Made by a program: the position numbers and the translations under genes. Positions 3,119 through 22,587 of a DNA stretch of 58,968 nucleotides are shown in pieces (positions within the stretch are counted from its first letter, which is position 1; each line of letters opens with the position of its first letter). Source of the stretch: an uncultured Bacilli bacterium (GTDB lineage Bacteria > Bacillota_I > Bacilli_A > RF39 > UBA660); assembly GCA_944331935.1 (NCBI GenBank), contig CALVIV010000003.1:1-58968 (forward strand), read 5' to 3'. The notes beneath the pieces were generated by a model. The model did no database searches and was not told where the DNA came from. It saw nothing but the letters and a program-made list of their open reading frames with translations.

Positions 3119-3496
3119 ATGGAAGTTAAGATAAATAAGGAAATAAGAAATTATACTGAAAGTATTTATTTTGGACTTAATTTAAGACAATTTGTTTTTA
3201 GTATTTTAGGATGTGTTGTAGCTGTTGTTCTATATTTTCTATTAAAGCCATATTTAGGAATTGAAACTTTATCCTGGGTTTGTATGCTTGGAGTTGTGCC
3301 TTTTGCTGCTATTGGATTTTTAAAATATAATGGTATGCCAGCAGAACAGTTTGTATTAGCGTGGATCAAGTCAGAAATTTTAGTGCCTAGACATTTAGAA
3401 TTTAATGCAAAGAATTTTTATTATGAGTTAATTTATAATAAGCCAAAAGAAAAGAAGAAAGGAGTAAAAGATGAAAACGATAAGGAATCTATTTAA
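3119..3496 (+). CDS. PrgI/TcpE-family conjugal transfer membrane protein
   Basis: Seen: the product is small, with FGLNLRQF followed by two hydrophobic helices and ...KYNGMPAEQF. It sits immediately upstream of, and overlaps, the VirB4-like gene. Known: this matches Tn916 ORF17 / PrgI-type proteins. Confidence 0.7.
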   Translation: MEVKINKEIRNYTESIYFGLNLRQFVFSILGCVVAVVLYFLLKPYLGIETLSWVCMLGVVPFAAIGFLKYNGMPAEQFVLAWIKSEILVPRHLEFNAKNFYYELIYNKPKEKKKGVKDENDKESI

Positions 3497-5801
3497 AAGA
3501 GATAAAGAAGAATTTAATATACCTAAAAGTATTCAAGATACCATACCAGTAAATAGAATATGGAAAGATGGTATTTTTTTATTAGGTAAAGATAAATATA
3601 GTAAAACTTATAGATTTACTGATATTAATTATGCAGTTGCTTCTAGAAATGATAAAGAAGCAATGTTTTTAAATTATTCTGAATTATTAAATTCACTTGA
3701 TTCTAGTGCGACGTCAAAAATAACAATTCTAAATAGAAGATTAAATAAAGTAGATTTTGAGAAGAATATATTATTGCCAAAAGCGAATGATAATTTAGAC
3801 AAGTACCGTGATGAATATAATAGGATGTTAATTGAGCAGGCAACAAATTCTAATTCAATGGTTCAAGAGAAATTTCTTACTATATCTATAAATAAAAATA
3901 GTCTAGATGAGGCTAGACAATATTTTACTCGGATTTCTGCTGAATTAAATAATCGTTTTCGTGAACTCGGTTCAAAAGTCGAATCATTAAGTGCAAATGA
4001 AAGATTAAGAGTAATACACGATTTTTATAGAGTGGGAGAGGAATCTATTTTTAATTTTGATATGATAGACAATATGAGAAAAGGGCATTCCTTTAAAGAT
4101 TATATATGTTCAGATTCTTTATCTTTTGAAAAAGATTATTTCGAATATGGAAATAGATATGGACGTGTATTATACTTGAAAGAGTATGCTAATTATATAA
4201 AAGATGATATGGTTGCAGAATTGACAGATATGGATAGAAGTATGCTTCTATCTATTGATATAATACCAATCCCCATGGATGAAGCGATACGTGAGGTGGA
4301 AAACAGAAGATTAGGTGTAGAAACTAATATTACTAATTGGCAACGCAGACAAAATAACAATAACAATTTTAGTGCTGTTATTCCTTATGATTTGGAGCAA
4401 CAAAGAAAAGAATCGAAAGAATTTCTAGATGATCTTACTACGAGAGACCAAAGAATGTTTGTATGCGTTATTACTATGGTTCATACTGCTAAGACTTTAG
4501 AACAATTAAATCTAGATACAGAATCTTTATTATCTACTGCTAGAAAACATTTGTGTCAGTTAGCGGTATTAAAGTATCAACAAATGGATGGATTAAATAC
4601 GGTTTTACCTTATGGAGTAAGAAAAATAAATACATTAAGAACATTAACAACTGAATCATTAGCTGTTTTTACACCATTTAGAGTACAAGAAATTAATCAT
4701 GAAAATGGAATATATTATGGTTTAAATGTTATATCTAAAAATATGATAATTGCAGATAGAAGGCAACTACTAAATGGTAATTCTTTTATATTAGGTGTTA
4801 GTGGAAGTGGTAAGTCTTTTACTGCAAAAAATGAAATAGTTTCTATTGCATTACGTGATCCTACAGCAGATATCATTATTGTTGATCCAGAGCGAGAAGA
4901 AAGCAGGTTGGTAAAAGCATTAGGTGGAGAAGTAATTCATATATCTGCTACAAGTGAAAATCATATAAATGCAATGGATTTAAATAGTGAATATGGTGAT
5001 GGTGCGAATCCTGTAATATTAAAGTCTGAATTTATTTTATCTTTGTGTGAACATTTAATGGGTGAAAAGTCTTTAGGCCCAAAAGAAAAATCAATTATAG
5101 ATAGATGTACTGCCAAAGTTTATAGAGTGTATCAACAGGGAAATTATCAAGGTGTCCCACCAACTTTACAAGACTTTAGAGAAGAATTATTAAAACAACC
5201 AGAGGAAGAGGCAAAGCAAATTGCCCTTGCTATCGAATTGTTTACAGATGGATCTTTAAATACATTTGCTAAAAATACTAATGTTGATACAAATAATCGT
5301 ATTATATGTTATGATATCTTAGATTTAGGAAAACAATTACTTCCTATAGGTATGCTTGTTGTTTTAGATAGTATTTTAAATAGAATTACAGCTAATAGAA
5401 ATAAAGGAAGAAGTACATATATTTTCATAGATGAAATATATTTATTATTTCAACATGAATATTCTGCTAATTTCTTATTTACTTTATGGAAACGTGTTAG
5501 AAAATATGGAGCTTATGCTACAGGGATTACACAAAATGTGGAAGATTTATTACAGTCTCATACTGCAAAAACTATGCTTGCAAACTCTGAATTTATTGTT
5601 ATGTTAAATCAAGCCTCAACTGATCGTCTTGAATTAGCGAAATTATTAAATATTTCAGAGTTACAATTAAGTTATATAACTAATGTTGGAGCAGGTGAAG
5701 GACTTTTAAAAGTAGGACGTAATCTAGTACCATTTGAAAATCATTTCCCTCATGATTTAGAATTATATAAATTGATGACTACTAAACCAGGGGAAGAATA
5801 G
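3471..5801 (+). CDS. VirB4-like conjugal transfer ATPase (Tn916 ORF16 / CD1110-type)
   Basis: Seen: 776 aa with Walker A GVSGSGKSF, Walker B IFIDEIYLL and the C-terminal GITQNVEDL motif. Known: this architecture is typical of Firmicutes type IV secretion energising ATPases. Confidence 0.85.
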   Translation: MKTIRNLFKRDKEEFNIPKSIQDTIPVNRIWKDGIFLLGKDKYSKTYRFTDINYAVASRNDKEAMFLNYSELLNSLDSSATSKITILNRRLNKVDFEKNILLPKANDNLDKYRDEYNRMLIEQATNSNSMVQEKFLTISINKNSLDEARQYFTRISAELNNRFRELGSKVESLSANERLRVIHDFYRVGEESIFNFDMIDNMRKGHSFKDYICSDSLSFEKDYFEYGNRYGRVLYLKEYANYIKDDMVAELTDMDRSMLLSIDIIPIPMDEAIREVENRRLGVETNITNWQRRQNNNNNFSAVIPYDLEQQRKESKEFLDDLTTRDQRMFVCVITMVHTAKTLEQLNLDTESLLSTARKHLCQLAVLKYQQMDGLNTVLPYGVRKINTLRTLTTESLAVFTPFRVQEINHENGIYYGLNVISKNMIIADRRQLLNGNSFILGVSGSGKSFTAKNEIVSIALRDPTADIIIVDPEREESRLVKALGGEVIHISATSENHINAMDLNSEYGDGANPVILKSEFILSLCEHLMGEKSLGPKEKSIIDRCTAKVYRVYQQGNYQGVPPTLQDFREELLKQPEEEAKQIALAIELFTDGSLNTFAKNTNVDTNNRIICYDILDLGKQLLPIGMLVVLDSILNRITANRNKGRSTYIFIDEIYLLFQHEYSANFLFTLWKRVRKYGAYATGITQNVEDLLQSHTAKTMLANSEFIVMLNQASTDRLELAKLLNISELQLSYITNVGAGEGLLKVGRNLVPFENHFPHDLELYKLMTTKPGEE

Positions 5802-7402
5802 TGAAAGACATAAAAACAAAAGATAGTTCTCGTAAGGGAATTAAAACGCTTAATAAAGCTAGTGCGTGGACTGAGAGAATTAAAGATCCTATTGTTTATC
5901 TAAATGATAAATCAAACGAAATAAATTCAAACAATAATAATATAAATGAATATGGATCAGACAAAATAAAATATTATAGTAACAGAATTAAAGATGAGAC
6001 AATCCATGGAGCTGGTAAACTAGTAAACAAAGGAAAAACTAGTTTAATAAATAAAATTAAAAGACGAAATATAAAGAATACTGCTGGTACAAGTAAAATT
6101 AAAACAAAGGTAGCTAATGCTAAAAATATAATGAATAATACAAAAAAGGCAGCACAACGAAGTAAACAAATGGCTATTCAAGCTAAAAGACTAGCCATAA
6201 GTATGGCAAGAACTACACGAAGAGCAGTAATGGCTATATCCAAAGGTGTTATTTTAGGAGTTAAAGCATTAATAAGTGCTTTAAGCTCATTAATTGGCTT
6301 ATTGGCAAGCGGTGGAGCAATTGTGATGATAGTAATTATTGTTATATGTCTAATTGCCGCCTTATTAGGTTCAATTTTTGGTATCTTTTTTTCCAATGAT
6401 TCAAATAGTAGAACTATGACTAGTGTTATTAGTGAGATTAATCAAGAGGTTTATAGAAATGTAGAATCACAAAGGCTTTTATCACAAGCAGATGAAATAG
6501 TTTTTGAATCAACCTATTCTAATTGGAAAGAAGTAATTGCGGTTTATTCTGTAAAATATGCTAATGATAATTCGGAAGATGCTGAGATTGTAATGTATTT
6601 AGACGATAAAAACGTTAGAAGATTAAAGACTGTTTTTTATGATTTTAATACAATCATTACTGAAGTTAGAAATGAAGAAAATGCAAATGAAAGTAGTCCA
6701 CCAGAATTTAATAATAATCCAGTTAATGGGCAGGGAAAAACTATATTATATGTAAAAGTCACATCAAAATCTTTAGAAGAAATCATGAATAATTATAGTT
6801 TTAGTGATGACCAAAAAGAACAAGTTAAAGAATTAACTAGTTCAGAATATGATGATATGTGGAGTCATCTATTGTATGGCTCTGAAACAGGAGATTATAT
6901 TTACTGGAGGCAGAAAAATGCAAGTTGGTCAAATATACAAATTGGTAATTCAGGGAAAACAATTAGTGATATTGGTTGTCTAGTTACATCTGTGGCAATT
7001 TTAATACAAAAATCTAATGTTAATAATACAATACTCCCTTTTAATCCTGGTATTTTTGTTGAAAATTTAAATAACAATAATGGATTTGATAATAATGGTA
7101 ATTTACAATATGCTGCCATTACGAAAATAATTCCTAATTTTCAATATAAAGGTAGAGTAACTTTAGCTGGAAAAAGTAAAAATGAAAAATTAAAACTAAT
7201 AAAAACATATCAAGAACAGGGATATTATATAGCTATGGAAGTGTTAGGAGATACAGGTCAGCATTGGGTTGCAGTGATGAATGTTGTTGGTAATGAAATT
7301 AAAATGGTTGATCCTAGTACGGATAATATAGATGTTTGGAATACATATAATTGGAAAAATAGTTCGCAATTTGTGTATTTTCAAGCTAACTTGGCTAGTT
7401 AA
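5801..7402 (+). CDS. membrane-anchored conjugation-associated cell wall hydrolase (C-terminal C39-like/papain-like cysteine peptidase)
   Basis: Seen: the GTG start overlaps the virB4 stop. The N-terminus is Lys-rich, followed by a long hydrophobic segment (GVILGVKALISALSSLIGLLASGGAIVMIVIIVICLIAALLGSIFGIFF). The C-terminus carries the Cys motif SDIGCLVTSVAIL and the His motif GQHWVAV. Inferred: it plays the peptidoglycan-hydrolase role that Tn916 ORF14 and TcpG have. Confidence 0.55.
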   Translation: MKDIKTKDSSRKGIKTLNKASAWTERIKDPIVYLNDKSNEINSNNNNINEYGSDKIKYYSNRIKDETIHGAGKLVNKGKTSLINKIKRRNIKNTAGTSKIKTKVANAKNIMNNTKKAAQRSKQMAIQAKRLAISMARTTRRAVMAISKGVILGVKALISALSSLIGLLASGGAIVMIVIIVICLIAALLGSIFGIFFSNDSNSRTMTSVISEINQEVYRNVESQRLLSQADEIVFESTYSNWKEVIAVYSVKYANDNSEDAEIVMYLDDKNVRRLKTVFYDFNTIITEVRNEENANESSPPEFNNNPVNGQGKTILYVKVTSKSLEEIMNNYSFSDDQKEQVKELTSSEYDDMWSHLLYGSETGDYIYWRQKNASWSNIQIGNSGKTISDIGCLVTSVAILIQKSNVNNTILPFNPGIFVENLNNNNGFDNNGNLQYAAITKIIPNFQYKGRVTLAGKSKNEKLKLIKTYQEQGYYIAMEVLGDTGQHWVAVMNVVGNEIKMVDPSTDNIDVWNTYNWKNSSQFVYFQANLAS

Positions 7403-7425
7403 TTAAGTTGACTAGCCATTTTTTT
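7392..7425 (+). terminator. rho-independent terminator
   Basis: Seen: the perfect 8-bp stem TGGCTAGT/ACTAGCCA spans the stop codon and is followed by T7. Confidence 0.7.
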
Positions 7426-7447
7426 GTTTTAAAAAATATCTTTAAAT

Positions 7448-7469
7448 GAACAAATGTTCGTGATATAAT
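7448..7469 (+). promoter_or_regulatory. LexA (Cheo) box GAACAAATGTTC abutting an extended -10 TGATATAAT
   Basis: Seen: GAAC-N4-GTTC lies at 7448..7459 and TGATATAAT at 7461..7469, about 17 nt upstream of the polymerase start. Known: the Gram-positive LexA/DinR consensus is CGAACRNRYGTTCG. Confidence 0.65.
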
Positions 7470-7485
7470 TATTTTGGTGATACAG

Positions 7486-8988
7486 ATGGGAAGAATTTTT
7501 ATGTGTATTGATTTAAAAAGTTTTTATGCTTCTGTTGAGTGCGTTGAAAGGAAGTTAGATCCATTAAAAACAAATTTAGTTGTTGCTGATGAATCAAGAA
7601 CAGATAAAACTGTATGTTTAGCAATTAGTCCATCATTAAAACAATATGGTTTGGGAGGAAGAGCTAGACTTTTTGAAGTTAAACAAAAAGTAAAGGAGAT
7701 AAACCTTCAAAGGAGAAAATTAAATAACTATAGAAAGTTTAGTGGAAAATCATATTTGGATGAAGAATTAAAGAAAAATAAAAATTTGGAATTAGATTTT
7801 ATTGTAGCTCCACCTAGAATGGCTTATTATATGAAATACAGCACAAATATTTATAATATTTATTTGAAATATATTGCACCAGAGGATATTCTTGTTTATT
7901 CAATAGATGAGGTATTTATTGATATAACTGATTATATTTCACTTTACAAATGTACACCGAGACAATTAGTTACGAAAATGATTAAAGACGTATATGAAAC
8001 AACTGGTATCACTGCTACTGCGGGAATAGGGACGAATATGTTTTTAGCAAAGGTGGCAATGGATATTGTGGCTAAAAAATGTAAACCGAATGAATTTGGA
8101 GTTAGAATTGCTGGTCTAGATGAGATGACTTTTAGAAAGAAATTGTGGGACCATAAGCCAATAACTGATTTTTGGCGTGTTGGTAAAGGAATAGCTAATA
8201 AACTTGCTAAAAATAATATGAACACTATGGGGGATGTTGCAAGATGTTCTCATTATAATGAAGATTTATTATACAAATTATTTGGTGTTAATGCGGAATT
8301 ATTGATTGATCATGCTTGGGGATGGGAACCTTGTACAATTGAAATTGCTAAAAGTTATAAACCGACTGAAACATCACTTAGTTCTGGACAAGTTTTGCAT
8401 GAGCCATATGATAATAAAAAAGCAAAAATTATTGTACAAGAGATGGCGGATAATTTGGCTCTTAATCTAGTAAATAAGAAATTTCTAACAAAACAATTGG
8501 TTTTAACCATAAATTATGATATTGAAAATTTAACTAATCCCGATATTTTTAATAAATATTTTGGAGAAATAACTTTAGATTCGTATGGAAGAAAAATACC
8601 AAAGCATTCTCATGGAACAGTTAATTTAGAGCATTATACTTCTTCGTCTAGCATTATTATGGAAAGCTTTGTGAATTTGTTTGATAAAATTTCTAATCCT
8701 ATTCTGTTAATTAGAAAGCTAAATCTAACGGTAAGTAAATTGATTTGTGAAGATAAAGTTCAGACTAATAAAAAAGTGGAACAAATTAATTTGTTCACTG
8801 ATTATAAAAAAAAGGAGATAGAAGAAGCAAAACAAAAAGATGATGAGAATAAAGAAAAAGAAATACAAAAAGTCATTTTGCAAATAAAAAACAAATATGG
8901 AAAAAATGCTATCTTAAAGGGAATGAATTTGACAGAAGGTGCAACTGCGATTGAAAGGAATAAGCAGATAGGAGGACATCATGAATAA
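7486..8988 (+). CDS. Y-family (UmuC/DinB/UvrX-like) translesion DNA polymerase
   Basis: Seen: the N-terminus reads [26 protein letters not shown] and the SIDEVFID and [12 protein letters not shown] motifs are present. I prefer the ATG at 7486 over the TTG at 7474 given in the ORF track. Confidence 0.85.
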
Positions 8989-9427
8989 ATATGACGATAT
9001 TATTGATTTGCCACATCATGTTTCTAAAACAAGAAAGCCGATGAGTTTATATAATAGAGCAGCACAGTTTGCACCTTTTGCAGCATTAACAGGTTATGAT
9101 GATGCAATAGAGGAAACTGCAAGGTTAACCGAAACAAAGGTAGAACTGAGTGATGAATTAAAAAATGATTTAAATCAAAAAATAAATTTTATAAAGAATA
9201 ATATAAAAGTCCATCCAGAAATTACAATTAAATATTTTGTTCGAGATAATAAAAAGAGTGGTGGTATATATAAGTCGTTAACGAGTATAATTAAAAAGGT
9301 TGACGATTTTAATAAATGTCTTATTTTTGCTGACAATACAAACGTTTACTTTGATGATATTATTAGTATCACCTGGCAAAGTGATTTTAATAAAGTTTTA
9401 TTAGATAATGAGAAAAATAGTGAATGA
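8981..9427 (+). CDS. YolD-like protein (accessory to the Y-family polymerase)
   Basis: Seen: it overlaps the polymerase stop by 8 nt and contains [23 protein letters not shown]. Known: YolD-like proteins follow uvrX-type polymerases in SPbeta and in ICEs. Confidence 0.65.
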
Positions 9428-9467
9428 ATTTTATGATTGTTGTACTTAACATAAATTATAATTATAT

Positions 9468-9500
9468 AAAGCGAATCAGATTGTTTTAGATTCGCTTTTT
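9468..9500 (+). terminator. rho-independent terminator
   Basis: Seen: the 9-bp stem AAGCGAATC/GATTCGCTT is followed by T6. Confidence 0.75.
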
Positions 9501-9503
9501 TCA

Positions 9504-9512
9504 TGGTATAAT
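9504..9512 (+). promoter_or_regulatory. extended -10 element TGGTATAAT
   Basis: Seen: TGgTATAAT sits about 22 nt upstream of the SWIM gene start, immediately after a terminator. Confidence 0.5.
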
Positions 9513-9534
9513 TTGTATATATGGAGATGGAGCA

Positions 9535-10566
9535 ATGAATTCTATTAAAGATAATGAAAAAGTATCTCTAATAAAAAAATTCTACAAAAAAGATGAAGTG
9601 TTTTTAGAATTAGAGTTATTAAATTATTCAGGATATAATTTATATATAATTATAACCAGATCAAAAAAATATGGAACTTATAAACTTAGTTGGTTTGATT
9701 TAGATGATATAAAAGATAAAAGTATTGAAAAATATCTATCATGCCAATACATCGACAGTAAAGTTATACATCTTATTGAGAATACTTATTCAAATTATAA
9801 AGTTGATGCTCATTACATTGATGAGTTTTTGACTGATAAAGATGTTGTTATTTTTAATGCTAATATTAAAACAAATGATTCTGATAATATTAGTATATCT
9901 TTTAAAAAATATATGCCTAAATGTTTAGCTAATTTAACAGATTTATTTATATTTATTTTTAGAAACATGCCAAGAACATATGAAGTTTTTCTATATAAAA
10001 TTTTAGCAAAGCTAACTGGAAGTACAGAAATGTATGAATATAAAGAAGAGTTTGATTTTGATTTGTTTAATGATGATATTGATAAATTGTTTCGTTTTCA
10101 AATTGCTGAAAGAGGAAAAAAATATTACGAGGAAGATAGAGTTGAATTTTTAGAGAAAATAGATGACAGATATTTTGCCATTGTAAATGGTTCTGAAAAA
10201 TATGTTGTAATAATAAAGTACATTGAAAAAGATAAAAAAATGCAAGTGTATTGTACTTGTCCATGTGAGTTTTATTGTAAACACATTTACGCTGTTATTC
10301 TCGCTATTAGGAATAATAAAGGTAATAGATTTTATAAAATAATGTATAAAAATCCTAATAAGAATTTACTTGAGAGAATTATGGATCTTGAATATTTGTT
10401 ATGTTTAGGAATCATTGAACAGAATTTTGAAATAATCAATAATTATGGTGAAATCGAATTAATCCCTATATTAGATAAAAATGATAAATATAATTGGGAA
10501 ATATTAGAGGATTCTGAAGATGAGAAATTAACAAAACAGATAAAATATTTTTTGGATAATAAATAG
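9535..10566 (+). CDS. SWIM zinc-finger protein
   Basis: Seen: VYCTCPCEFYCKHIYAVILAI fits the CxCxnCxH signature. It is preceded by the usual RGKKYYEEDRV...AIVNGSEKYVV beta-strand region. The roughly 190-aa N-terminal domain is unrecognised. Confidence 0.7.
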   Translation: MNSIKDNEKVSLIKKFYKKDEVFLELELLNYSGYNLYIIITRSKKYGTYKLSWFDLDDIKDKSIEKYLSCQYIDSKVIHLIENTYSNYKVDAHYIDEFLTDKDVVIFNANIKTNDSDNISISFKKYMPKCLANLTDLFIFIFRNMPRTYEVFLYKILAKLTGSTEMYEYKEEFDFDLFNDDIDKLFRFQIAERGKKYYEEDRVEFLEKIDDRYFAIVNGSEKYVVIIKYIEKDKKMQVYCTCPCEFYCKHIYAVILAIRNNKGNRFYKIMYKNPNKNLLERIMDLEYLLCLGIIEQNFEIINNYGEIELIPILDKNDKYNWEILEDSEDEKLTKQIKYFLDNK

Positions 10567-10586
10567 TAAAATTGTAGGTGGTAATT

Positions 10587-11330
10587 ATGGGAAAGTTATA
10601 TCTTCTAAGTGGAGATTACATATTAAATTCTAAAGATAAAGATGCTATTGTTAATGCCACTAATAAATATATGATAAATGGTAGTGGAATTTGTGGAGTT
10701 ATTTATAGAAATGCAGGAAACAAATTGTTAGAATACTGTAAACAAATATATAAAACAGATATGAAACCAGGAGAGGTAAGAGTTACACCAGGTTTTAATT
10801 TAAATATGGATATTATCCATGTATTAGCTCCGAAATATTATGAAGCAAGGAATCCAATTGATGAATTGTTATTTACATACAAAAAAATGTTAGAAGTTAT
10901 AATAGAAAAAGGTTACAAAAATGTACTTGTTTGTAGTTTGGGTACGGGGGTTCATGGATATAAACATGAAGATATTGCCAAACCACTTATATCACTTTTA
11001 AATAATTTTTGTAAAATTAATGATGTAAACTTATATTTCAATAATTTGTATCCAATTTATAAAGATATATATTTAAAACCATTTTTAGAAATAAATGCTC
11101 TATATTTAAAAAAGGATTTAATGAACTTGGAACCAAAAGAAATACTTATATACTTAAATGAAAATAATCTAATTGAAAATGACATAAAAAAGAAATATGC
11201 CAATTTTGTAAAAAATAAAGAATTAGATGATTTGTGTTTATCAGAAAAACTTATTTGTTTACAATATACTTTAGAAAATTTTGAAGTAACAAAAGAACAA
11301 ATTAAAATATTAATTGAAAGGATGGATTAG
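10587..11330 (+). CDS. macrodomain (MacroD-type ADP-ribose binding/hydrolase) protein with an unassigned C-terminal extension of about 90 aa
   Basis: Seen: the DAIVNATNKYMINGSGICGVIYRNAG, IIHVLAP and CSLGTGVHGY motifs are present. I prefer the ATG at 10587 (AGGTGG RBS) over the GTG at 10578. Confidence 0.8.
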   Translation: MGKLYLLSGDYILNSKDKDAIVNATNKYMINGSGICGVIYRNAGNKLLEYCKQIYKTDMKPGEVRVTPGFNLNMDIIHVLAPKYYEARNPIDELLFTYKKMLEVIIEKGYKNVLVCSLGTGVHGYKHEDIAKPLISLLNNFCKINDVNLYFNNLYPIYKDIYLKPFLEINALYLKKDLMNLEPKEILIYLNENNLIENDIKKKYANFVKNKELDDLCLSEKLICLQYTLENFEVTKEQIKILIERMD

Positions 11331-11334
11331 TAAT

Positions 11335-13434
11335 ATGAACAACAATCAAACATTTAAACCAGAGAATCAAACTATAAGTGATTTATTTTCTTGCCAAGCA
11401 ATATATGTTATTCCAAATTATCAAAGACAGTATAGTTGGGTGAATGAACAATTAGAAGAATTGTGGAGCGATTTATACGAATCATACATTAATACTCCTG
11501 AGGAATGTTATTTTTTGGGATCGATAGTAGTAGTTGATGATGGTAAAGGACACCATGAATTAGTTGATGGTCAGCAGAGAATAACAACATTGATGATAAT
11601 GTTAAATGTATTATCTAAAACATTCCCTGATATTAATAAAAACTCTGATATTTTATTAAAAGGTAATTTGCAAAAAATTAAGCAATTAATTTATTTTGAT
11701 GAAGGAATTAATAGATTGCAATTGCAGATAGATCCTAATTACAATACCTCATTTAAAAAAGCAATAATAAATCAAGATAATTATGAAAATTTTAAATATC
11801 CTACTCAAGCTAATTTGAAAAAAGATGATCCTGAGTATAAGTTTGTAAATACTGCAAAATTTTTCTATGATAAATTTAATGAGTTGTTAAAATCCGAAGG
11901 TCAAACCGTTTTAGATGGTTTTGTCAATTTCATTTTATTTAAAACTAATATTATAAAAACGATATGTACAAATCAATCGTTTGCTATTAAATTATTTTTA
12001 GTTTTAAATGATAGAGGTTTAGAACTTTCTATTTCTGATATTATTAAATCATATATACTTGATAAATATGATTCAAATGATAGATATAATGAAAATGATA
12101 AAGCAACATTTAATTATAACTGGAAATCTATTGAAAAAATAAGTAATGATTATGAATTTACAATTGATGATTTCATGGTTTATTTTGAATATTATAAACT
12201 TAAAAGTAATCCTAAAAGACAAGTTACAGACGAATTGAAAAAGATTATTCAATCATCTGAAGTGGTATCTTTAGTTGATGAGATGAAGTCTTTTGCTGAT
12301 AATTTAGAAAAAGTATATAAATCTACATTGCCTGTAATATATAGTTTGAGATATATCCCATGGCAAGCATATGTTATGACTGCTTTAGCTAGTGCATATC
12401 AAGTTGATTATCCAGATAAAGAAGAATTGTTTCAATCTATGAGAAGATTTTTCTATATTTCATGGATTTCTGGCAAAACGTTAAATGGAATAAAACAAAC
12501 GTCTTTCAATTTAATCGATGCGATAGTCGATAAAAAAACTATTGATGAAATAAATGAGATGCTTGATAAGTTTATTTATGGAAAAAGATTAATAAGAGAT
12601 GTTTATCAAAATTTGAATGATGATGTTTATGGCCAAAATTTTTTGAAAGCTTTAATGTTGTCTATTGAGTATGAAATCAGAGAAAAAACCAATGTTGGAT
12701 TTTATAAGATTAATAATTCAATCCATATCGACCATATATTACCACAACAATTTGATAAAAGATTAGATGAATGGAAGAATATAGATGATGTTGCGTTAGC
12801 TAAAACATACATTCATAAATTAGGAAATTTGGCTTTACTTCTTGGAAGTAAAAATGAAGAGGCATTGAATCATGGTATGAATGTAAAGATGAATATTTAT
12901 CAAGGAAAAGATAAAAATGAGTCAGGTGTAACAGCTTTTGATACAACAAAAACAATAATTGATAATTATAATAAAGGTGATGTTAATTGGGATGTTTCTC
13001 ATATAGTTGATAGACAAAAATATTTAATTGGATTAATAGAAAATATGTTAGATATATCTGAAGATGATATAGATAAAATTATAGAAGAAGAACAAAAAGC
13101 TAATTCATTACATAAATGGCAATATAATAATGAATATTTAACAAACAAAGGTCTAGTTTTAAGTATTTTGAAGGATTATATAAATGCCAATAATATAAAA
13201 GATTATTATTCTATTCCAAAGGAAATAAGAGATTTTAAAATGTATTCACATGAATTAATTAAAAATGAAAATAATGAAGAATATACTTATACAAAATTAG
13301 ATTGTGATTATTTATCAGTGTATGTAAGGACAATTTGTTTAAAAAATGATACAAATAAATTTATAGATATGATGAAAAAATATTTTGATTTTGATTTAAT
13401 AAAATTAGAATCTGAAAAAGAAGTTTATAATTAA
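11335..13434 (+). CDS. GmrSD-family type IV restriction enzyme-like protein (N-terminal DUF262/ParB-like NTPase + C-terminal DUF1524 His-Me nuclease)
   Basis: Seen: IPNYQRQYSW and VDGQQRITTL occur in the N-terminal half. IHIDHILPQ...LGNLALLLGSKNEE occurs in the C-terminal half, followed by about 120 further unassigned residues. I prefer the ATG at 11335 over 11314. Confidence 0.8.
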   Translation: MNNNQTFKPENQTISDLFSCQAIYVIPNYQRQYSWVNEQLEELWSDLYESYINTPEECYFLGSIVVVDDGKGHHELVDGQQRITTLMIMLNVLSKTFPDINKNSDILLKGNLQKIKQLIYFDEGINRLQLQIDPNYNTSFKKAIINQDNYENFKYPTQANLKKDDPEYKFVNTAKFFYDKFNELLKSEGQTVLDGFVNFILFKTNIIKTICTNQSFAIKLFLVLNDRGLELSISDIIKSYILDKYDSNDRYNENDKATFNYNWKSIEKISNDYEFTIDDFMVYFEYYKLKSNPKRQVTDELKKIIQSSEVVSLVDEMKSFADNLEKVYKSTLPVIYSLRYIPWQAYVMTALASAYQVDYPDKEELFQSMRRFFYISWISGKTLNGIKQTSFNLIDAIVDKKTIDEINEMLDKFIYGKRLIRDVYQNLNDDVYGQNFLKALMLSIEYEIREKTNVGFYKINNSIHIDHILPQQFDKRLDEWKNIDDVALAKTYIHKLGNLALLLGSKNEEALNHGMNVKMNIYQGKDKNESGVTAFDTTKTIIDNYNKGDVNWDVSHIVDRQKYLIGLIENMLDISEDDIDKIIEEEQKANSLHKWQYNNEYLTNKGLVLSILKDYINANNIKDYYSIPKEIRDFKMYSHELIKNENNEEYTYTKLDCDYLSVYVRTICLKNDTNKFIDMMKKYFDFDLIKLESEKEVYN

Positions 13435-13443
13435 TTGCAATAT

Positions 13444-13467
13444 AAGAGGTTTAAAACTTCTTTTTTT
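13444..13467 (+). terminator. rho-independent terminator (one G-U pair)
   Basis: Seen: the AAGAGGTT/AACTTCTT stem is followed by a T-run. Confidence 0.55.
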
Positions 13468-13499: not shown

Positions 13500-13508
13500 T
13501 GGTATAAT
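13500..13508 (+). promoter_or_regulatory. extended -10 element TGGTATAAT upstream of hsdR
   Basis: Seen: the same TGgTATAAT 9-mer as at 9504 lies about 36 nt upstream of the hsdR start. Confidence 0.5.
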
Positions 13509-13544: not shown

Positions 13545-15863
13545 ATGTTAAATAAAAAAGAATTAACAGAAGAAGATATAAAATTAAAATATATTACGCC
13601 GGCATTACAATCAGCAGATTGGGATATAAAAAACCAAATTCGATGCGAATATTATTATACTGCTGGAAAAATAAATGTAAGGGAAAATGTTGCTCAAAGA
13701 GGTAAAGGAAAAAAAGTAGATTATCTTTTATCTTATAAATCTAATTTGCCTATTGCAATAGTTGAAGCAAAAGATAATAAAGTACCAATAGCTCATGGAA
13801 TACAGCAAGGAATAGATTATGCTTACGATTTAGATATTCCATTTGCTTATTCATCAAATGGTGATGGATTTTTTGAACATGATATGATTACTGGTGAAGA
13901 AAGAGAACTTAAGTTGGAAGAATTTCCGACTCCTAAACAACTATGGGAAAGATATTTAAAAGAAAAAGAAATTAATCCGGAGCAGGAGTCATTAATCACA
14001 GAACCATATTATTTTATGGATATAAATAAAACCCCAAGATATTATCAAAGAATAGCAATTAACAAAACAATAGAAGCCATTTCTAAAGGGCAAAAGAGAA
14101 TATTGCTGGTTATGGCTACTGGAACAGGTAAGACATTTACCGCATTTCAAATAATACATAGACTACATAAATCTGGGAAGATGAAAAAAATTTTGTATTT
14201 AGCTGATAGAAATGTTTTGATAGATCAAACAATGCAGAATGATTTTAAACCGTTTCAAAAGGTTATGACTAAAATTGAACATAGAAATATGGATTCTTCT
14301 TACGAAATTTATATGTCATTGTATCATCAATTAAGAAGTAATGAAGAAGAAGTATATAAACAATTTAAACCCGACTTTTTTGATTTGATTATTGTTGATG
14401 AGTGTCATAGAAGCAGTGCTAAAGATGATTCTAATTGGCATGAGATATTAACATATTTTAGTGGCGCGACTCAAATTGGTATGACAGCTACACCAAAGGA
14501 AACAGTAGATGTTTCAAATATAACTTATTTTGGGGAACCTATTTATACATATTCTTTAAAACAAGGTATAGAGGATGGATTCCTTGCACCTTATAAAGTT
14601 GTTAGAGTTAGTTTGGATAGAGACTTGGAGGGTTATAGGCCTGAAAGAGGAAAGCTAGATGAGGATGGTTATGAAGTTGAAGATAAAGAATATACAATGC
14701 ACGACTTTGACAGAACAATCGTTATTGATGAAAGAACAAAAGTAGTTGCCAAAAGAATTGCTGAATATATGAAATCAACAGATAGAATGGCAAGAACTAT
14801 TGTTTTCTGTATCGACACAGAACATGCTTTAAGAATGAGAAACGCTTTAGCTGAAGAAAATAGAGACTTAATGCAATTAAATCCAAACTATGTCGTTAGA
14901 ATTACTAGTAATGACGTTGTTGGTAAAGCAAAACTTGATGACTTTATTGATTCAAATACAATATATCCTGTAATTGCAACGACTTCAAAATTATTATCTA
15001 CAGGTGTTGATACTAAGACAGTAAAATTGATAGTATTGGATGTAGAAATTCAAAGTATGACTGAATTTAAACAAATTATAGGTAGAGGGACAAGACTTCT
15101 TCCAAATAAAGGCAAAGAATATTTTACAATAATGGACTTTAGAAATAATTCAGAAAAGTTTGCTGATCCTAATTTTAATGGACCTGCCGAAGTGGTTTTA
15201 GATGTAGATGGAGGAAATGGTCAAGAACCAAAGACAGGAAAAGATTTTGGGATAACTGATACAACAATTAAGCCTCCTATAAGTGGAGATGTTGAAGATG
15301 GACAATCTAAAAAAGTTTATATAAATAATGTCCCTGTATCTATCATAAATGAAACTGTAAAATACTATGATGCTGATGGAAGATTAATAACTGAATCTAT
15401 AGTAGAATATTCTGGTAGAAATTTAAAAAGAGTTTATGAAAGATATGAGGATTTTGAACAAGAATGGTATAGAGCAGATTCTAAGAAAGATTTTTTAAAT
15501 CATTTGTTTAATGAAGGCGTAATGATTGATGCTTTATATGATAAAGCAAATGACAATATAGATATATTTGATATTTTGTCTAATATGGCTTATGGTGTAG
15601 AAGTTGTATCCAAAGAAGATAGAATTGAGAAAGTGAAAAACAGTAATCTTATAAATGAATACAATGATTCACAAAAGAGTGTAATTAATGAATTGTTAGA
15701 GACATATAAAAATCAGGATGTTTTAGAATTAGAAAATATAAGGACTTTAGAAGTGAAAAATTTTAATAAATTCGGAGGACTAGTTCCTATCGTTAATTTA
15801 TTTGGTGGAAAAGATAAATACCTTAATGTTATCTCTAACATTGAGAAAGCTTTGTATAGCTAG
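13545..15863 (+). CDS. hsdR: type I restriction enzyme R subunit
   Basis: Seen: the N-terminal nuclease region reads LTEEDIKLKYITPAL...VDYLL...IAIVEAKD. Helicase motifs MATGTGKT, DECHR and TATP are present, in a product of 772 aa. Confidence 0.9.
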   Translation: MLNKKELTEEDIKLKYITPALQSADWDIKNQIRCEYYYTAGKINVRENVAQRGKGKKVDYLLSYKSNLPIAIVEAKDNKVPIAHGIQQGIDYAYDLDIPFAYSSNGDGFFEHDMITGEERELKLEEFPTPKQLWERYLKEKEINPEQESLITEPYYFMDINKTPRYYQRIAINKTIEAISKGQKRILLVMATGTGKTFTAFQIIHRLHKSGKMKKILYLADRNVLIDQTMQNDFKPFQKVMTKIEHRNMDSSYEIYMSLYHQLRSNEEEVYKQFKPDFFDLIIVDECHRSSAKDDSNWHEILTYFSGATQIGMTATPKETVDVSNITYFGEPIYTYSLKQGIEDGFLAPYKVVRVSLDRDLEGYRPERGKLDEDGYEVEDKEYTMHDFDRTIVIDERTKVVAKRIAEYMKSTDRMARTIVFCIDTEHALRMRNALAEENRDLMQLNPNYVVRITSNDVVGKAKLDDFIDSNTIYPVIATTSKLLSTGVDTKTVKLIVLDVEIQSMTEFKQIIGRGTRLLPNKGKEYFTIMDFRNNSEKFADPNFNGPAEVVLDVDGGNGQEPKTGKDFGITDTTIKPPISGDVEDGQSKKVYINNVPVSIINETVKYYDADGRLITESIVEYSGRNLKRVYERYEDFEQEWYRADSKKDFLNHLFNEGVMIDALYDKANDNIDIFDILSNMAYGVEVVSKEDRIEKVKNSNLINEYNDSQKSVINELLETYKNQDVLELENIRTLEVKNFNKFGGLVPIVNLFGGKDKYLNVISNIEKALYS

Positions 15864-15872
15864 GAGGTTAAA

Positions 15873-17360
15873 ATGAATATAGGAACAATGATAAAAAGAC
15901 TTCAAGATATTATGCGACAAGACGCTGGCGTTAATGGCGATGCTCAAAGAATTGAACAGATTGTATGGATGTTATTTCTTAAATTATATGACGCTAAAGA
16001 AATGGAATGGGAAATTCTTGAAGATAATTATAAATCTATTATACCAGAGGAATATAGATGGAGAAATTGGGCACCAGATAGCAAAGATGGTAAAGCTATA
16101 ACTGGAGAAGAAATGTCTTCGTTTATAATTCAATTATTTGCTACCTTAAAAGAACTTGAGGTAGATGAAAATACTGATGTTAGAGGTAGATTAGTTAAAG
16201 AAGTGTTTACTGATTTGAATAACTACATGAAAGATGGAGTTTTAATTAGACAGGTTGTAAATGTATTAAATGAAATCGATTTGACAGACTTTAAAATAAG
16301 ACATGCGTTTAATGAGATATATGAAACTATTTTGAAAGATTTGCAATCAGCAGGAAAATCTGGAGAGTTTTATACACCTAGGGCTGTTACAGATTTTGTT
16401 GTTAAAATGGTTGATCCTAAAATAGGAGAAAGTGTTGCCGATTTTGCATGTGGTACTGGTGGTTTTTTAGTTTCTGCACTTAATCATATGAAAGAAACAG
16501 TTAATAATACTGCAAGCAATGAAATATTGCAACAGTCCTTTTATGGTGTTGAAAAAAAATCACTTCCTTATTTATTGTGCACAACAAATATGTTGTTGCA
16601 TGACATAAATGAGCCTCAAATCGTTAGAGGAAACTCCTTAGAAAAAAATGTTAGAGATTATGAAGAAAAAGACAAGTTTGATGTTATATTAATGAATCCT
16701 CCTTATGGTGGAACAGAAAAAAAGTCTATACAGCAAAATTTCCCCACTGAGTTGAGAGATTCGGAAACTGCTGATTTATTTATGGTTGAGATTCTTTATC
16801 GATTGAAGGACAGTGGGCGAGTAGGGATAGTTTTACCAGATGGATTTTTATTTGGAGTAGATAATACAAAAGTAGCAATTAAGAAGAAATTATTAGAGGA
16901 ATGTAATTTGCATACTATTATAAGATTGCCTGGTTCAATTTTTGCACCATATACTTCGATAGCAACTAATCTATTATTTTTTGACAAAACAGGACCTACT
17001 AAAGAAATATGGTTTTATAGAATGGATTTACCTGAAGGATATAAAGCCTTTAGTAAAACAAAACCTGTTGAATTAGAACATTTTAATAATGTAATTAATT
17101 GGTGGAATAATAGAATAGAAATAAAGGACAAAAAAGAAGATGAATCAATAACTGAAACATGGAAGGCTAAAAGATATTCAATTGAAGATATTATTGAATT
17201 AAACTATAATTTAGATCAATGTAGTTTCCCTCAAAAAGAAGAAATAATACTATCCCCACAAGAAACAATGAATAATTTTATCAATAAAAGAGAGAAACTA
17301 GAAAAACAGTTAGATGAAAAACTTAAGGAAATTATTAAACTAATAGGGGAATCAAAATGA
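15873..17360 (+). CDS. hsdM: type I R-M N6-adenine DNA methyltransferase subunit
   Basis: Seen: the FYTPR, DFACGTGGF and NPPYGG motifs are present, with the usual HsdM N-terminal domain. Confidence 0.9.
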   Translation: MNIGTMIKRLQDIMRQDAGVNGDAQRIEQIVWMLFLKLYDAKEMEWEILEDNYKSIIPEEYRWRNWAPDSKDGKAITGEEMSSFIIQLFATLKELEVDENTDVRGRLVKEVFTDLNNYMKDGVLIRQVVNVLNEIDLTDFKIRHAFNEIYETILKDLQSAGKSGEFYTPRAVTDFVVKMVDPKIGESVADFACGTGGFLVSALNHMKETVNNTASNEILQQSFYGVEKKSLPYLLCTTNMLLHDINEPQIVRGNSLEKNVRDYEEKDKFDVILMNPPYGGTEKKSIQQNFPTELRDSETADLFMVEILYRLKDSGRVGIVLPDGFLFGVDNTKVAIKKKLLEECNLHTIIRLPGSIFAPYTSIATNLLFFDKTGPTKEIWFYRMDLPEGYKAFSKTKPVELEHFNNVINWWNNRIEIKDKKEDESITETWKAKRYSIEDIIELNYNLDQCSFPQKEEIILSPQETMNNFINKREKLEKQLDEKLKEIIKLIGESK

Positions 17361-18688
17361 TTACGGAAGTTTTGAAAAATAGTATTTTAATAGAGGCTTT
17401 TAAGGGAAATCTAACGGAAAGAAATAAGGATGATTCAAGTGTTGATGAATTATTGAAAACTATTGAAGAAGAAAAACAGGCAATTATAATTGAAAAGAAG
17501 ATTGATAAAATTAGTCAAACAATATCCGATAAAGAAATACCTTTTTGTATACCACAAAATTGGAGATGGGTTAGATGGGGAAATTTGTCATACTCTATTC
17601 AATATGGAGTGAATGCTGGTGCAAAAAATCAAGGAAAAATTAAAATGGTTAGAATTAGCGATATACAAGATAACTCTATAATATGGGAAGATGTACCATA
17701 TTGCGATATAAGTGATAATCTTTTATCTAAGTATGTTCTAAATGAAAATGATATTTTATTTGCTAGAACTGGAGGAACAGTTGGAAAGTCTGTAATTGTT
17801 AAAGATATGCCACAGGATGTTCCTTATGTTTTTGCTGGGTATTTAATTCGTTCTAATTATAACAAAAGAATTAATTGTAAATTTTTAAAATTTTTTATGG
17901 AAAGTCCTTTATATTGGAACCAATTAAGAGAAAAAACTATTGGGAGTGCTCAACCTAATTGTAATGGGCAGAAATTATCAAATATGATTTTACCTTTACC
18001 TCCTATAGAAGAACAGCAACGTATTGTAGATAAAATTGAAGAATTATTTACAAAAATAGATGAAATAAAACCTATAGAGGAAGAAATATATAATTTAAAG
18101 AATAATTTTGTAATTCAAATTAAGAGAAATATATTATTAGATGAGATAATCTCAATTGATAAAAAAATCGCTTTAGAAAATTATATGGATACTAAGTTAA
18201 AAGAAGGCTGGAAGTGGGTTAAATTTTCAGAAATTGCAGATTGTAGAATGGGTAAAACAATTTTAGGTAAAGAATTAACGAATTGTGGTATACCAGTATA
18301 TAGTGCGACAAATACAAATGAAGTTTTTGGTTTTGTACCAGACGCTGAGCTTATTTTAAATAAAGGAGATATAGTGATACCGGCTCGCGGGAATTCAATT
18401 GGTTATGCAACTTTCATTAATGATGAAGTAGCTACATGTACGCAAACAACTATTGCGTGCAAGCCAAAAAAAAATATTTATAACAAATATTTATATTATT
18501 GTTGTTATGCATTTAAAAATGTATGGTTTAAATATACGGGTTCAGCGATTCCACAAATTACTATATCAAAAATAAATAATAATTATGTACCGTTACCGCC
18601 TTTTGAACAGCAAAAAAAAATAGTAGAAAGATTAGAAAAAATTTTACCTCTTTGTGATGAAATTGAAAAACTAATAAAAGGTAATTAA
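17357..18688 (+). CDS. hsdS: type I R-M specificity subunit
   Basis: Seen: there are two target-recognition halves, each ending in a conserved helix (LPLPPIEEQQRIVDKIEELF and VPLPPFEQQKKIVERLEKIL). The gene overlaps the hsdM stop by 4 nt. Confidence 0.9.
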   Translation: MITEVLKNSILIEAFKGNLTERNKDDSSVDELLKTIEEEKQAIIIEKKIDKISQTISDKEIPFCIPQNWRWVRWGNLSYSIQYGVNAGAKNQGKIKMVRISDIQDNSIIWEDVPYCDISDNLLSKYVLNENDILFARTGGTVGKSVIVKDMPQDVPYVFAGYLIRSNYNKRINCKFLKFFMESPLYWNQLREKTIGSAQPNCNGQKLSNMILPLPPIEEQQRIVDKIEELFTKIDEIKPIEEEIYNLKNNFVIQIKRNILLDEIISIDKKIALENYMDTKLKEGWKWVKFSEIADCRMGKTILGKELTNCGIPVYSATNTNEVFGFVPDAELILNKGDIVIPARGNSIGYATFINDEVATCTQTTIACKPKKNIYNKYLYYCCYAFKNVWFKYTGSAIPQITISKINNNYVPLPPFEQQKKIVERLEKILPLCDEIEKLIKGN

Positions 18689-18689
18689 A

Positions 18690-19280
18690 ATGTTTGAAAA
18701 AATAATTGATGTAATAAAAGAATTTATAGAAAAACATTTTTTTCCATCGCTTTTGTCTGTAACTATAACTGCATTGGTTTATTATATAACGCCATATAAT
18801 TTAGCTATTTTTGTAAAACTGGGTAAAAATTTTTACCTATTTACGCTATTTTGTTTGACTCTATTTATTGTTGAAATAATTATATATATTTTGAAAAAAT
18901 TAATGAATAAAGTAAATATAATAATAGAACAAAATAAGTATAATCATAAAATAGAAAAAAAGAATATTGAATACATATATAACGTTTTGGATACATTAAC
19001 TCCTGAAGAGTTTGATTTAATCGATTATTTTGTTACGAATGGAAATTGTCCAATTGTGACATACTCAGAATTACATGGAACGGTTTATATGGATAGTTTA
19101 TTTGATTCAAGACAATATAAAATAAATGAAAAAAGTTTAACTGATGTAGATCCATATAATCTTTCACATAAAATAACTTATAAAAAAGGGGAATATGTTA
19201 TACAATTTAAATTAAAAGAGGATATTTACCAATTACTATCTAAGATTAAGAAAAAAACTGGAAAAATTTCCAGATTTTAA
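18690..19280 (+). CDS. two-TM membrane protein, translationally coupled fourth gene of the hsd operon
   Basis: Seen: the start is 1 nt after the hsdS stop. There are two N-terminal hydrophobic helices and a soluble C-terminus of about 110 aa. Inferred: it is possibly similar to superinfection-exclusion (SieB-type) proteins, but I cannot verify this. Confidence 0.45.
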   Translation: MFEKIIDVIKEFIEKHFFPSLLSVTITALVYYITPYNLAIFVKLGKNFYLFTLFCLTLFIVEIIIYILKKLMNKVNIIIEQNKYNHKIEKKNIEYIYNVLDTLTPEEFDLIDYFVTNGNCPIVTYSELHGTVYMDSLFDSRQYKINEKSLTDVDPYNLSHKITYKKGEYVIQFKLKEDIYQLLSKIKKKTGKISRF

Positions 19281-19282
19281 TG

Positions 19283-19305
19283 AGCATTGAAGAATGCTTT
19301 TTTTA
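19283..19305. terminator. bidirectional terminator between convergent genes
   Basis: Seen: the hairpin AGCATT-gaag-AATGCT is followed by T7. Confidence 0.7.
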
Positions 19306-19728
19306 TTTTATTATTTTATATATGGATATGTTATGTTTATAGCAAATCGTATATAATGTAAGTGTTGTTATTAAATATTGTCCGGTTTCATAATTACTAT
19401 AAGTCGTTTGAGAAATCATACATTCATCAGAAAGTTGTTGTTGAGTCATTTTAAGATTAGTCCTTAGTATCCTTAAATTCTTACCAATGTTCTTTTTATC
19501 TATTTTATCTATTTTTTGAAAATTATTTTCATTAGATAAACCTAAGATATAATCAATGGAATATTTATATAAGTTTGAAAAATTAACTAATTTTGTCAGT
19601 GGCATTGAATCATAGTTGTTTTCCCAACCTGTAACTGTTTTTCTTGAAACACCTAATACTTTTCCTAATTCCTCTTGAGTAATTTCAAGTTCCTCTCTAC
19701 AACTTTTTAAATTATTATTTATTAACAT
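19303..19728 (-). CDS. XRE-family transcriptional regulator with two tandem HTH domains
   Basis: Seen: there are two HTH_3-like units (ITQEELGKVLGVSRKTVTGWEN and MTQQQLSDECMISQTTYSNYETG). I prefer the internal ATG at 19728 (GGTGAT RBS) over 19755. Confidence 0.7.
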   Translation of the reverse strand: MLINNNLKSCREELEITQEELGKVLGVSRKTVTGWENNYDSMPLTKLVNFSNLYKYSIDYILGLSNENNFQKIDKIDKKNIGKNLRILRTNLKMTQQQLSDECMISQTTYSNYETGQYLITTLTLYTICYKHNISIYKIIK

Positions 19729-19866
19729 TGTTATCACCAATATTAATTTTCCCATTTAATTGTGGCGTATTGCTAAAATGCTGGGTTATTTGGTAAAATG
19801 ATGATATAATAATAATATCAAGCTAAAATAGACAATATTTTACGATTAGAAAGAAGGTGAATATTT

Positions 19867-22495: not shown

Positions 22496-22587
22496 TATTT
22501 GTCAAGTTTGTGAATTATCTTTTTGTATCATGGAAACTTAATTTAAATAGAAATAAAATGTTGCATGAAGTGGTGGTGAAGTGGTTT

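Follow-up and report, generated by a model that had tools for sequence, protein, structure and literature searches.

Recurrent pairing of a macrodomain gene with GmrSD-type restriction nuclease genes in low-GC Firmicutes, and a possible accessory role of ADP-ribose removal in restriction

Restriction enzymes of types I and IV are regarded as self-sufficient, and the question raised by the locus described here is why the gene of a macrodomain protein (hereafter macro) should lie directly ahead of that of a GmrSD-type type IV restriction nuclease, with the gene of a SWIM zinc-finger protein before it and a type I restriction-modification (R-M) system behind the nuclease. The locus is found on contig CALVIV010000003.1 (assembly GCA_944331935.1) of an uncultured Bacilli bacterium, and we refer to the whole stretch of 58,968 nucleotides (nt) that was analysed as the window. 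An original prediction, made from the letters of this DNA, had considered the three genes as a combination that might work together in defence. By comparing gene neighbourhoods, we found that it is the macro and GmrSD genes that recur together, and the explanation that we prefer, although we give it somewhat less than an even chance, is a restriction cassette of type IV (plus type I) that includes an accessory ADP-ribose eraser.

Organization of the three-gene operon

The genes and the transcription signals around them are as follows.

9468 to 9500, + strand: intrinsic terminator hairpin followed by a T-run (-12.3 kcal/mol, z -3.64), closing the preceding unit
9485 to 9512, + strand: promoter-like site, with TTTAGA (-35-like), a 16 nt spacer and a TG-extended TATAAT
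9535 to 10566, + strand: SWIM zinc-finger protein, 343 amino acids (aa) (Pfam SWIM, 9.1e-07, 28.7 bits, cutoff 19.6)
10587 to 11330, + strand: MacroD-type macrodomain protein, 247 aa from its ATG (Pfam Macro, 1.7e-24)
11335 to 13434, + strand: single-chain GmrSD-type type IV restriction nuclease, 699 aa (Pfam GmrSD_N, 5.2e-33; GmrSD_C, 4e-12)
13444 to 13467, + strand: weaker terminator hairpin followed by a T-run (-8.6 kcal/mol, z -3.0)
13500 to 13508, + strand: second TGGTATAAT extended -10, upstream of hsdR

A check of the open reading frames confirmed the coordinates of the three co-directional genes, which are separated by 20 nt (SWIM/macro) and 4 nt (macro/GmrSD), and Shine-Dalgarno-like sequences lie upstream of both the macro and the GmrSD ATG. 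The Pfam matches to SWIM, Macro, GmrSD_N and GmrSD_C uphold the domain calls of the original prediction, and every motif that it quoted for the three proteins is present in the translations. The terminators that it had placed on both sides of the genes have T-runs and folding energies that beat those of shuffled sequences; a simple terminator scan missed both hairpins, owing to its loop and GC rules. The extended -10 TGGTATAAT was likewise seen ahead of the SWIM gene (9504 to 9512) and again before hsdR. Since this 9-mer is no rarer than chance (three copies in the window versus 1.6 expected), its evidential weight comes only from its placement after a terminator and before a gene, and the idea that its repetition marks a duplicated element was dropped because the count fits chance. 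Judged by spacing and signals, the three genes are most naturally read as one transcription unit.

The macro gene recurs directly upstream of GmrSD genes

We sampled neighbourhoods anchored separately on the SWIM, macro and GmrSD proteins, mainly from metagenomes of related low-GC Firmicutes; all inference from them is comparative, and the context counts given here and below refer to the matches listed, so that each is to be read as "at least". The macro-anchored sampling yielded about 21 assessable contexts, in 6 of which a GmrSD gene lies no more than three genes downstream of macro (8 when the window and locus L087 are included). The GmrSD gene is always downstream and on the same strand, mostly as the very next gene (gaps of -4 to 17 nt) and otherwise as the second or third, and the same order, strand and near-zero spacing are repeated in at least six contexts with distinct flanks. 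Thus, we found a type IIG R-M gene, macro and GmrSD (L059/60); a coupling-protein gene, macro and GmrSD (L070); macro and GmrSD followed by hsdR and hsdM (L071); an ADP-ribosylglycohydrolase (ARH) gene, macro and GmrSD (L079-83); macro and GmrSD with two intervening genes (L075/76); and SWIM, macro and an 828-aa GmrSD that is 27-29% identical to that of the window (L087), the only second instance of the trio. Macro usually precedes restriction genes on its own strand: type I R-M genes follow it within two to six genes in about 8 contexts. An ARH gene adjoins macro in 4.

The two proteins also diverge in parallel. In the subfamily of GmrSD proteins of 827-829 aa, the identities of GmrSD and macro are 97/89, 88/81, 83/73 and 65/59%, while the flanks of the co-diverging pairs change among a type IIG R-M gene, ARH, a coupling-protein gene and two inserted genes. 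This parallel divergence in the midst of changing flanks makes a chance placement of macro beside GmrSD hard to uphold. Moreover, the macro proteins of the window and of L087 are 73% identical, yet their partner GmrSDs share only the 27-29% mentioned above, so that the nuclease subfamily has been exchanged and the arrangement retained. A functional link between the macro and GmrSD genes thus has real comparative support, and their products may interact. The macro gene of L087 is frameshifted in an A-run (1240-1300 of that locus), which could be an assembly error or mark a pseudogene.

The nuclease and its type I R-M neighbours

The operon has as its effector a GmrSD-type type IV nuclease of the stand-alone kind, whose restriction activity is predicted from its domains. 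It displays the motifs PNYQRQYSW, DGQQR (aa 78-82), HIDHILPQ (aa 464-471), NLALL and KNE. DGQQR, in the DUF262/GmrS (ParB-like NTPase) domain, is invariant across the GmrSD clade, as are H464, D466, H467, N498 and N507 in the DUF1524/GmrD His-Me domain. The PADLOC model HEC-06 (PDLC04154, 2.8e-49), which stands for a candidate single-gene defence, is matched over nearly its full length (aa 1-564 versus model positions 1-556 of 569), and among solved structures the DUF262 protein 9jfl is the closest relative. In the window protein, no domain is assigned to the C-terminal tail (about 130 aa), where sister enzymes have DUF5655.

The GmrSD-anchored sampling covered homologues 62-84% identical to the window protein in 6 contexts. 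With the window and L002/L019 added, the clade counts 8 contexts, and type I R-M genes stand beside GmrSD in 5 of them, more steadily than any other neighbour. The proposal that the trio is distinct from the hsd operon therefore holds as far as the transcription signals go, but not for gene association, and an association of GmrSD/RloF enzymes with type I R-M has already been described (PMC4619093). The contexts comprise hsdS-hsdR-GmrSD; Fic-GmrSD-hsdM...hsdR; macro, a 76-aa gene, GmrSD, hsdM, hsdS and hsdR (L117-120); another SWIM-domain protein followed by an 80%-identical GmrSD, ARH, hsdR and hsdM (L050-L052, 5047-9082); GmrSD within another conjugative element; and GmrSD alone. The SWIM-domain protein of L050-L052 (303 aa) has its SWIM domain at the N-terminus, is 36% identical to that of the window over the SWIM region only and is otherwise unrelated to it, and a weakly HipA_C-like gene lies further upstream.

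The macro protein is a MacroD-type variant with a private C-terminal domain

The macro protein consists of a macro domain (aa 1-155), which contains the motifs AIVNATN, NGSGICGVIY, IIHVLAP and SLGTGVHGY, and an all-helical C-terminal domain (aa 156-247). Its sequence matches in PDB are OiMacroD, MacroD1/2 and YmdB, and its AlphaFold2 (AF2) model (pLDDT 94) has the macro fold, with Foldseek TM scores of 0.86-0.88 to YmdB, or 0.79-0.88 when OiMacroD is included, and a root-mean-square deviation of about 2 A in either case. The ADP-ribose-binding loops are conserved, N23, N26, G32, G34, G37, S117, G119 and T120 being invariant in the macro family. In place of the catalytic Asp of MacroD, the family has an invariant Cys36 (GxGICG; GSGICG in the window). 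Within aa 31-40 (window 10677-10706), a Tyr also replaces the MacroD His, so that the site is a distinct active-site variant. Alphavirus nsP3 macrodomains have a Cys at the same position and retain hydrolase activity. By this analogy, a hydrolase activity of the Cys-variant macro protein is plausible.

When the C-terminal domain alone was searched against 1.8 billion representatives, 13 matches were obtained, 12 of which are fragments or proteins of about macro-family size or smaller; in the thirteenth, a 1096-aa protein, a repeat is matched locally and weakly (9.4e-05). With no convincing fusion among these 13 matches, the domain is confined to the macro family. The family itself is confined to islands and mobile elements of the sampled kind: GenBank phages and PLSDB plasmids gave only distant YmdB-like matches to macro (at most 35% identity), IMG/VR gave a single short relative, and a DNA-level plasmid search gave no match. 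Neither SWIM nor macro has a family in PHROGs, and in NCBIfam macro has matches below the cutoffs only, while SWIM and GmrSD have no model.

We looked for a transferase that the macro protein might counteract. No ADP-ribosyltransferase was found by Pfam, PADLOC and NCBIfam in the scanned window genes (1-25819) or among the recurrent neighbours, although divergent ones could escape these scans, and the same scans detected no adjacent DarT. Nor is the macrodomain of the DarG/TARG1 type, the PADLOC DarG match being weak (8.9e-4, 16.8 bits).

The SWIM protein is an optional member

The SWIM protein has an N-terminal beta/alpha domain, an extended SWIM domain and a C-terminal beta-rich domain (AF2 model, pLDDT 91). 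Its zinc-finger signature CTCPCEFYCKH (CxCx5CxH, aa 240-250) agrees with the SWIM pattern CxCxnCxH, and C240, C242, C244 and H250 are invariant in the family alignment, C248 nearly so. The N- and C-terminal domains have no PDB relative by sequence or fold: a search of PDB sequences with the family profile matched nothing meaningful, and a Foldseek search with the model gave a local match to the SWIM domain of ZSWIM8 and weak Pur-alpha-like matches (TM 0.22), which we do not rely on. Relatives were found neither in GenBank phages or PLSDB plasmids by protein-level search nor in the IMG/VR scans. The protein is probably nucleic-acid- or protein-binding.

The 33 genome loci of the SWIM-anchored sampling fall into 24 distinct contexts, mostly without macro or GmrSD, and the trio appears among them only in the lineage of the window itself (L001/L026). 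Elsewhere, SWIM is followed by GmrSD without macro (L002/L019, GmrSD 78% identical to that of the window), by a different, 827-aa GmrSD, again without macro (L031), or by macro and then the contig end (L021). Its other followers are LigD and a SNF2-SWIM helicase, HsdM-like methylases, DUF4238 and type I R-M, type IIG R-M, type III R-M, a QueC cluster and plain housekeeping genes. We had also considered SWIM as a conserved flank of a cargo hotspot, an idea that was dropped since its upstream neighbours are as variable as the downstream ones. The SWIM protein is, accordingly, an optional promoter-proximal accessory common to many cargo and restriction contexts, and no obligate subunit. A fixed trio, as first proposed, is therefore not borne out across genomes, where it recurs only in the L001/L026 lineage and in L087; what survives of the proposed functional link is its eraser-GmrSD part, which agrees with the recurrence, order and co-divergence of these two genes, whereas the obligate membership of SWIM does not stand.

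Two neighbourhoods of SWIM may be mentioned here. A clade of 57%-identical SWIM proteins occupies a stable chromosomal locus in many samples (NrtR (Nudix regulator)-AAA_28-NT5C-SWIM-acetyltransferase; L110-L115, 2492-7205), and a theme of NAD/ADP-ribose thus recurs near SWIM outside defence islands. In L023 (11178-14944), the genes of QueC, a Vut_1/YhhQ-type transporter and a carbamoyltransferase come after SWIM and may form a 7-deazaguanine-type modification cluster.

Possible roles of the macro protein

Under the explanation that we prefer, the macro protein would be a recurrent, co-inherited accessory of restriction nucleases rather than random cargo, co-transcribed and probably translationally coupled with GmrSD. 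It would remove ADP-ribose that phage or plasmid enzymes put on the restriction machinery or on DNA, and such removal would keep restriction working, a function that may be called "anti-anti-restriction"; the ARH and NUDIX genes of sister loci would do the same or a follow-up job. Both the hydrolase activity and the substrate of macro are inferred here. The more general proposition, that the macro/ARH/NUDIX cassettes found ahead of GmrSD and type I R-M genes serve specifically to guard restriction enzymes, we consider doubtful. Several points weigh against the preferred explanation. To our knowledge, there is no known invader ADP-ribosyltransferase that targets restriction enzymes. The ARH beside ArdC on the same element would suit offence no less than defence, and the whole macro family has Cys for the catalytic Asp, which leaves its activity unproven. 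Furthermore, the contexts share ancestry, so that the counts are of non-independent events; GmrSD has a high background frequency in islands of this kind; and macro also occurs without GmrSD, namely, with an HI_0787_N-like gene and type I R-M, around a UvrA-like ATPase, and in a prophage.

Three other explanations have to be weighed against it. The macro and ARH proteins might be counter-defence cargo, that is, orphan antitoxin-like erasers that shield the DNA or proteins of the incoming element from ADP-ribosylating host defences, for instance DarT-type toxins, with macro adjoining GmrSD merely through a common cargo region. The locus does lie on a conjugative element, ARH adjoins ArdC, macro comes right after the coupling-protein gene in two loci of integrative conjugative elements (L069, L070) and some genes further on in L061, macro and SWIM are found amid prophage lytic-cycle genes beside a C5 methylase, and phage DarG/NADAR mimics are documented (PMC11481870, PMC11825919, PMC13309987). 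Nevertheless, we hold this to be rather unlikely and rank it below the restriction-accessory explanation, because tight operonic coupling and co-divergence with GmrSD are unexpected for an independent gene, because the pair is also present in chromosomal islands without conjugation genes (L059; L080-82, by PPDK; L107), and because GenBank phages lack the macro family and IMG/VR has hardly any of it. In addition, its fold is of the MacroD type and not of the DarG/TARG1 type that reverses thymidine ADP-ribosylation.

It is less likely still that the genes have no functional link at all, recombination in a hotspot for cargo or defence genes having brought them together under one promoter, so that GmrSD would act alone, macro would be a housekeeping enzyme for O-acetyl-ADP-ribose or ADP-ribose, and SWIM would be an unrelated DNA-binding protein. 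Each of the three genes is indeed often found without the others, GmrSD homologues with 62-81% identity occur without macro or SWIM in L048, L053, L056 and L058, SWIM occurs in a housekeeping-type locus, and single-chain GmrSD enzymes are reported to act alone in the cases known (PMC4437046); but such an assembly would hardly repeat one order, strand and near-zero spacing in at least six flank-distinct contexts, nor have macro and GmrSD diverge in parallel, place non-homologous ADP-ribose enzymes (ARH, NUDIX) at the same loci, or limit a macro protein with a private C-terminal domain to these islands and elements. The obligate three-part system suggested by the original prediction, in which macro would sense ADP-ribose (on DNA, on protein or as a signal derived from NAD) and switch on GmrSD while SWIM binds nucleic acid, appears to us the least probable of all. 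It is in line with the single operon, with the one recurrence in L087 beside another GmrSD subfamily, and with the different SWIM-domain protein before an 80%-identical GmrSD and ARH in L050-52. However, 22 of the 24 SWIM contexts lack the trio, as do most contexts of macro and of GmrSD, every two-gene subset is found, macro is replaced or joined by ARH, a hydrolase without a known sensor role, and the MacroD-type fold favours hydrolysis over signal sensing.

Were the more general proposition of dedicated guards true, ADP-ribosylation would be a widespread, unrecognised anti-restriction weapon in gut Firmicutes, and hosts or their elements would bear an "anti-anti-restriction" layer. A co-inherited eraser would point to an unrecognised layer in the contest between invader and defender: the one would use ADP-ribosylation to switch off restriction enzymatically or to mask DNA, and the other would undo it. 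So far, such a layer is represented by a computational prediction for other systems and by a side observation on one anti-CRISPR transferase. As a three-gene operon with type I R-M that is abundant in human-gut metagenomes, the locus is a compact example, and the macro proteins are a defined family for biochemistry, MacroD-like, with a Cys that is invariant and a C-terminal domain of their own.

Relation to known systems

In accordance with the original prediction, the trio matches no named defence system: a PADLOC run returned HEC-06 for GmrSD, the 16.8-bit DarG match for macro and a local PDC-S62 match for SWIM. Like the GmrSD/BrxU/RloF type IV enzymes, which combine the same DUF262 (DGQQR) and DUF1524 (His-Me) domains in a single chain (Machnicka et al. 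2015, PMC4619093), the window GmrSD adjoins hsdR/M/S on a mobile element; unlike in their loci, a co-inherited macro gene and sometimes a SWIM gene precede the nuclease. The 2015 analysis of GmrSD neighbourhoods (PMC4619093) does not mention macro, ADP-ribose or SWIM, a domain-centric screen of 2026 in Nucleic Acids Research does not mention GmrSD, macro or SWIM, and in the literature searched we found no publication that combines "macrodomain" and "GmrSD". GmrSD beside type I R-M is known; macro or ARH as a recurrent GmrSD partner does not figure in PMC4619093.

A further parallel is offered by systems that Iyer et al. 2022 predicted (PMC9503650, section 3.8), in which host erasers of ADP-ribose, directed against viral ADP-ribosylation, have no coupled transferase and are often linked to nucleases. 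These systems share with our locus the uncoupled erasers, variable Macro/ARG/Nudix mixes, linked nuclease effectors and component turnover, and both are computational predictions. They differ in having an ARG core, an NrtR/WYL regulator, phosphatases and chaperones, and in being found in Actinobacteria, Planctomycetes and Proteobacteria, whereas the window locus is macro-led, includes GmrSD (HNH) and type I R-M, and belongs to elements of low-GC Bacillota. There is no ARG core here, the ARH lying 9 kb off, and no Nudix/WYL regulator, phosphatase or chaperone in the scanned element; the eraser without transferase beside a nuclease effector is present, which supports a similar way of working rather than membership. 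An eraser acting in an arms race has a precedent in the AcrIF11 transferase, which disables Cas8f and whose effect a macrodomain reverses (PMC12421852), and phages direct many inhibitors at GmrSD enzymes (PMC12373910). Like DarTG and the orphan DarG/NADAR mimics, the locus has a macrodomain that is placed on a mobile element in a context of defence or counter-defence; it differs in that no DarT was detected and that macro is of the MacroD/YmdB type. The SNF2-helicase-associated SWIM proteins and PDC-S62 resemble the window SWIM protein in the extended SWIM domain, and one related locus has a SNF2-SWIM helicase nearby, but the PDC-S62 match covers only positions 21-96 (76 of 566 model positions, the SWIM region; 33 bits) and the N- and C-terminal domains are unrelated to any PDB entry.

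The surrounding conjugative element

In this low-GC gut bacterium of the Bacilli (window G+C 24-29%), an integrative conjugative element carries the trio as a cargo operon. The other features of the element are listed below.

1 to 675, + strand: 3' part of an ARH gene, cut by the window start (Pfam ADP_ribosyl_GH, 7.5e-34)
713 to 1615, + strand: ArdC-like anti-restriction protein, with an ArdC N-terminal domain and a zincin peptidase (Pfam ArdcN, 8e-16; MPTase-PolyVal, 7.5e-35)
3471 to 5801, + strand: VirB4-type conjugation ATPase (NCBIfam conju_CD1110, 1024.9 bits, cutoff 325)
7474 to 9427, + strand: Y-family DNA polymerase and a weakly YolD-like partner, cargo directly upstream of the trio (Pfam IMS/IMS_C)
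13545 to 18688, + strand: complete type I R-M system, with hsdR (13545-15863), hsdM (15873-17360) and hsdS (17357-18688)
22492 to 25819, + strand: two large serine recombinases, the element end (Pfam Resolvase, Recombinase, Zn_ribbon_recom)

The VirB4-type ATPase of the CD1110 family shows the region to be an integrative conjugative element, and a PrgI-like conjugation gene accompanies it between the ArdC-like gene and the Y-family polymerase; regulators lie between the type I R-M genes and the recombinases. The ARH at the window start, directly before the ArdC-like gene in the conjugation module, is a second ADP-ribose eraser of the same element. The YolD match is weak (18.3 bits, under the 27.5-bit cutoff), and the NCBIfam DNA polymerase IV models also score below their cutoffs. 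Near-identical copies of the element are present in metagenome-assembled genomes labelled uncultured Bacilli (L001, L026), and gut metagenomes contain more than 100 near-identical variants of the window GmrSD protein, indicating that the element is common.

Other neighbourhoods of the macro family and the window

Several arrangements of the macro family go beyond the pair with GmrSD. An HI_0787_N-like protein of about 197 aa is encoded after macro with overlapping codons in 8 contexts; overlaps of 4-20 nt, which couple its translation to that of macro, are seen in at least nine loci, where the gene is at +1 (L063-L068, L073, L078, L109) or at -1 (L042-47) relative to macro. This protein could be a partner, an effector or a toxin of macro. 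That it is a hidden transferase toxin, with macro as its antitoxin, was considered; the protein gave no match in Pfam, PADLOC, NCBIfam or PDB scans, and the idea is neither supported nor excluded. The prophage lytic-gene region has the order SWIM, PDDEXK_5, HI_0787_N-like, macro, a 61-aa gene, HNH, C5 methylase and terminase. In L034-L041 (about 6000-9970), a chromosomal locus near rimM-trmD-rplS, an 818-aa UvrA-like ABC ATPase is flanked by macro paralogues of 246 aa each, with 77% and about 70% identity to the window protein, a hint that the macro family may act on DNA adducts.

Non-homologous ARH and NUDIX genes join or replace macro in some loci. In L107 (6001-8791), macro, ARH, a 167-aa gene and NUDIX follow each other, so that three ADP-ribose-processing families are placed inside a type I R-M island, and the cassette adjoins hsdM/hsdS, a GmrS_N-HNH protein and an AAA_21-RloB pair.

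In the window itself, the interval after hsdS (18690-19755) holds a 196-aa open reading frame with a weak SieB-like match, under the Pfam cutoff, and a divergently oriented double-HTH repressor (19303-19755). The recombinases are followed by chromosomal genes, namely, an RbgA-like GTPase and then dnaE and priA. Amid such chromosomal genes, outside the element, lies a 612-aa HerA/FtsK/TrwB-like ATPase (36692-38530), which might be part of a second small mobile or defence module.

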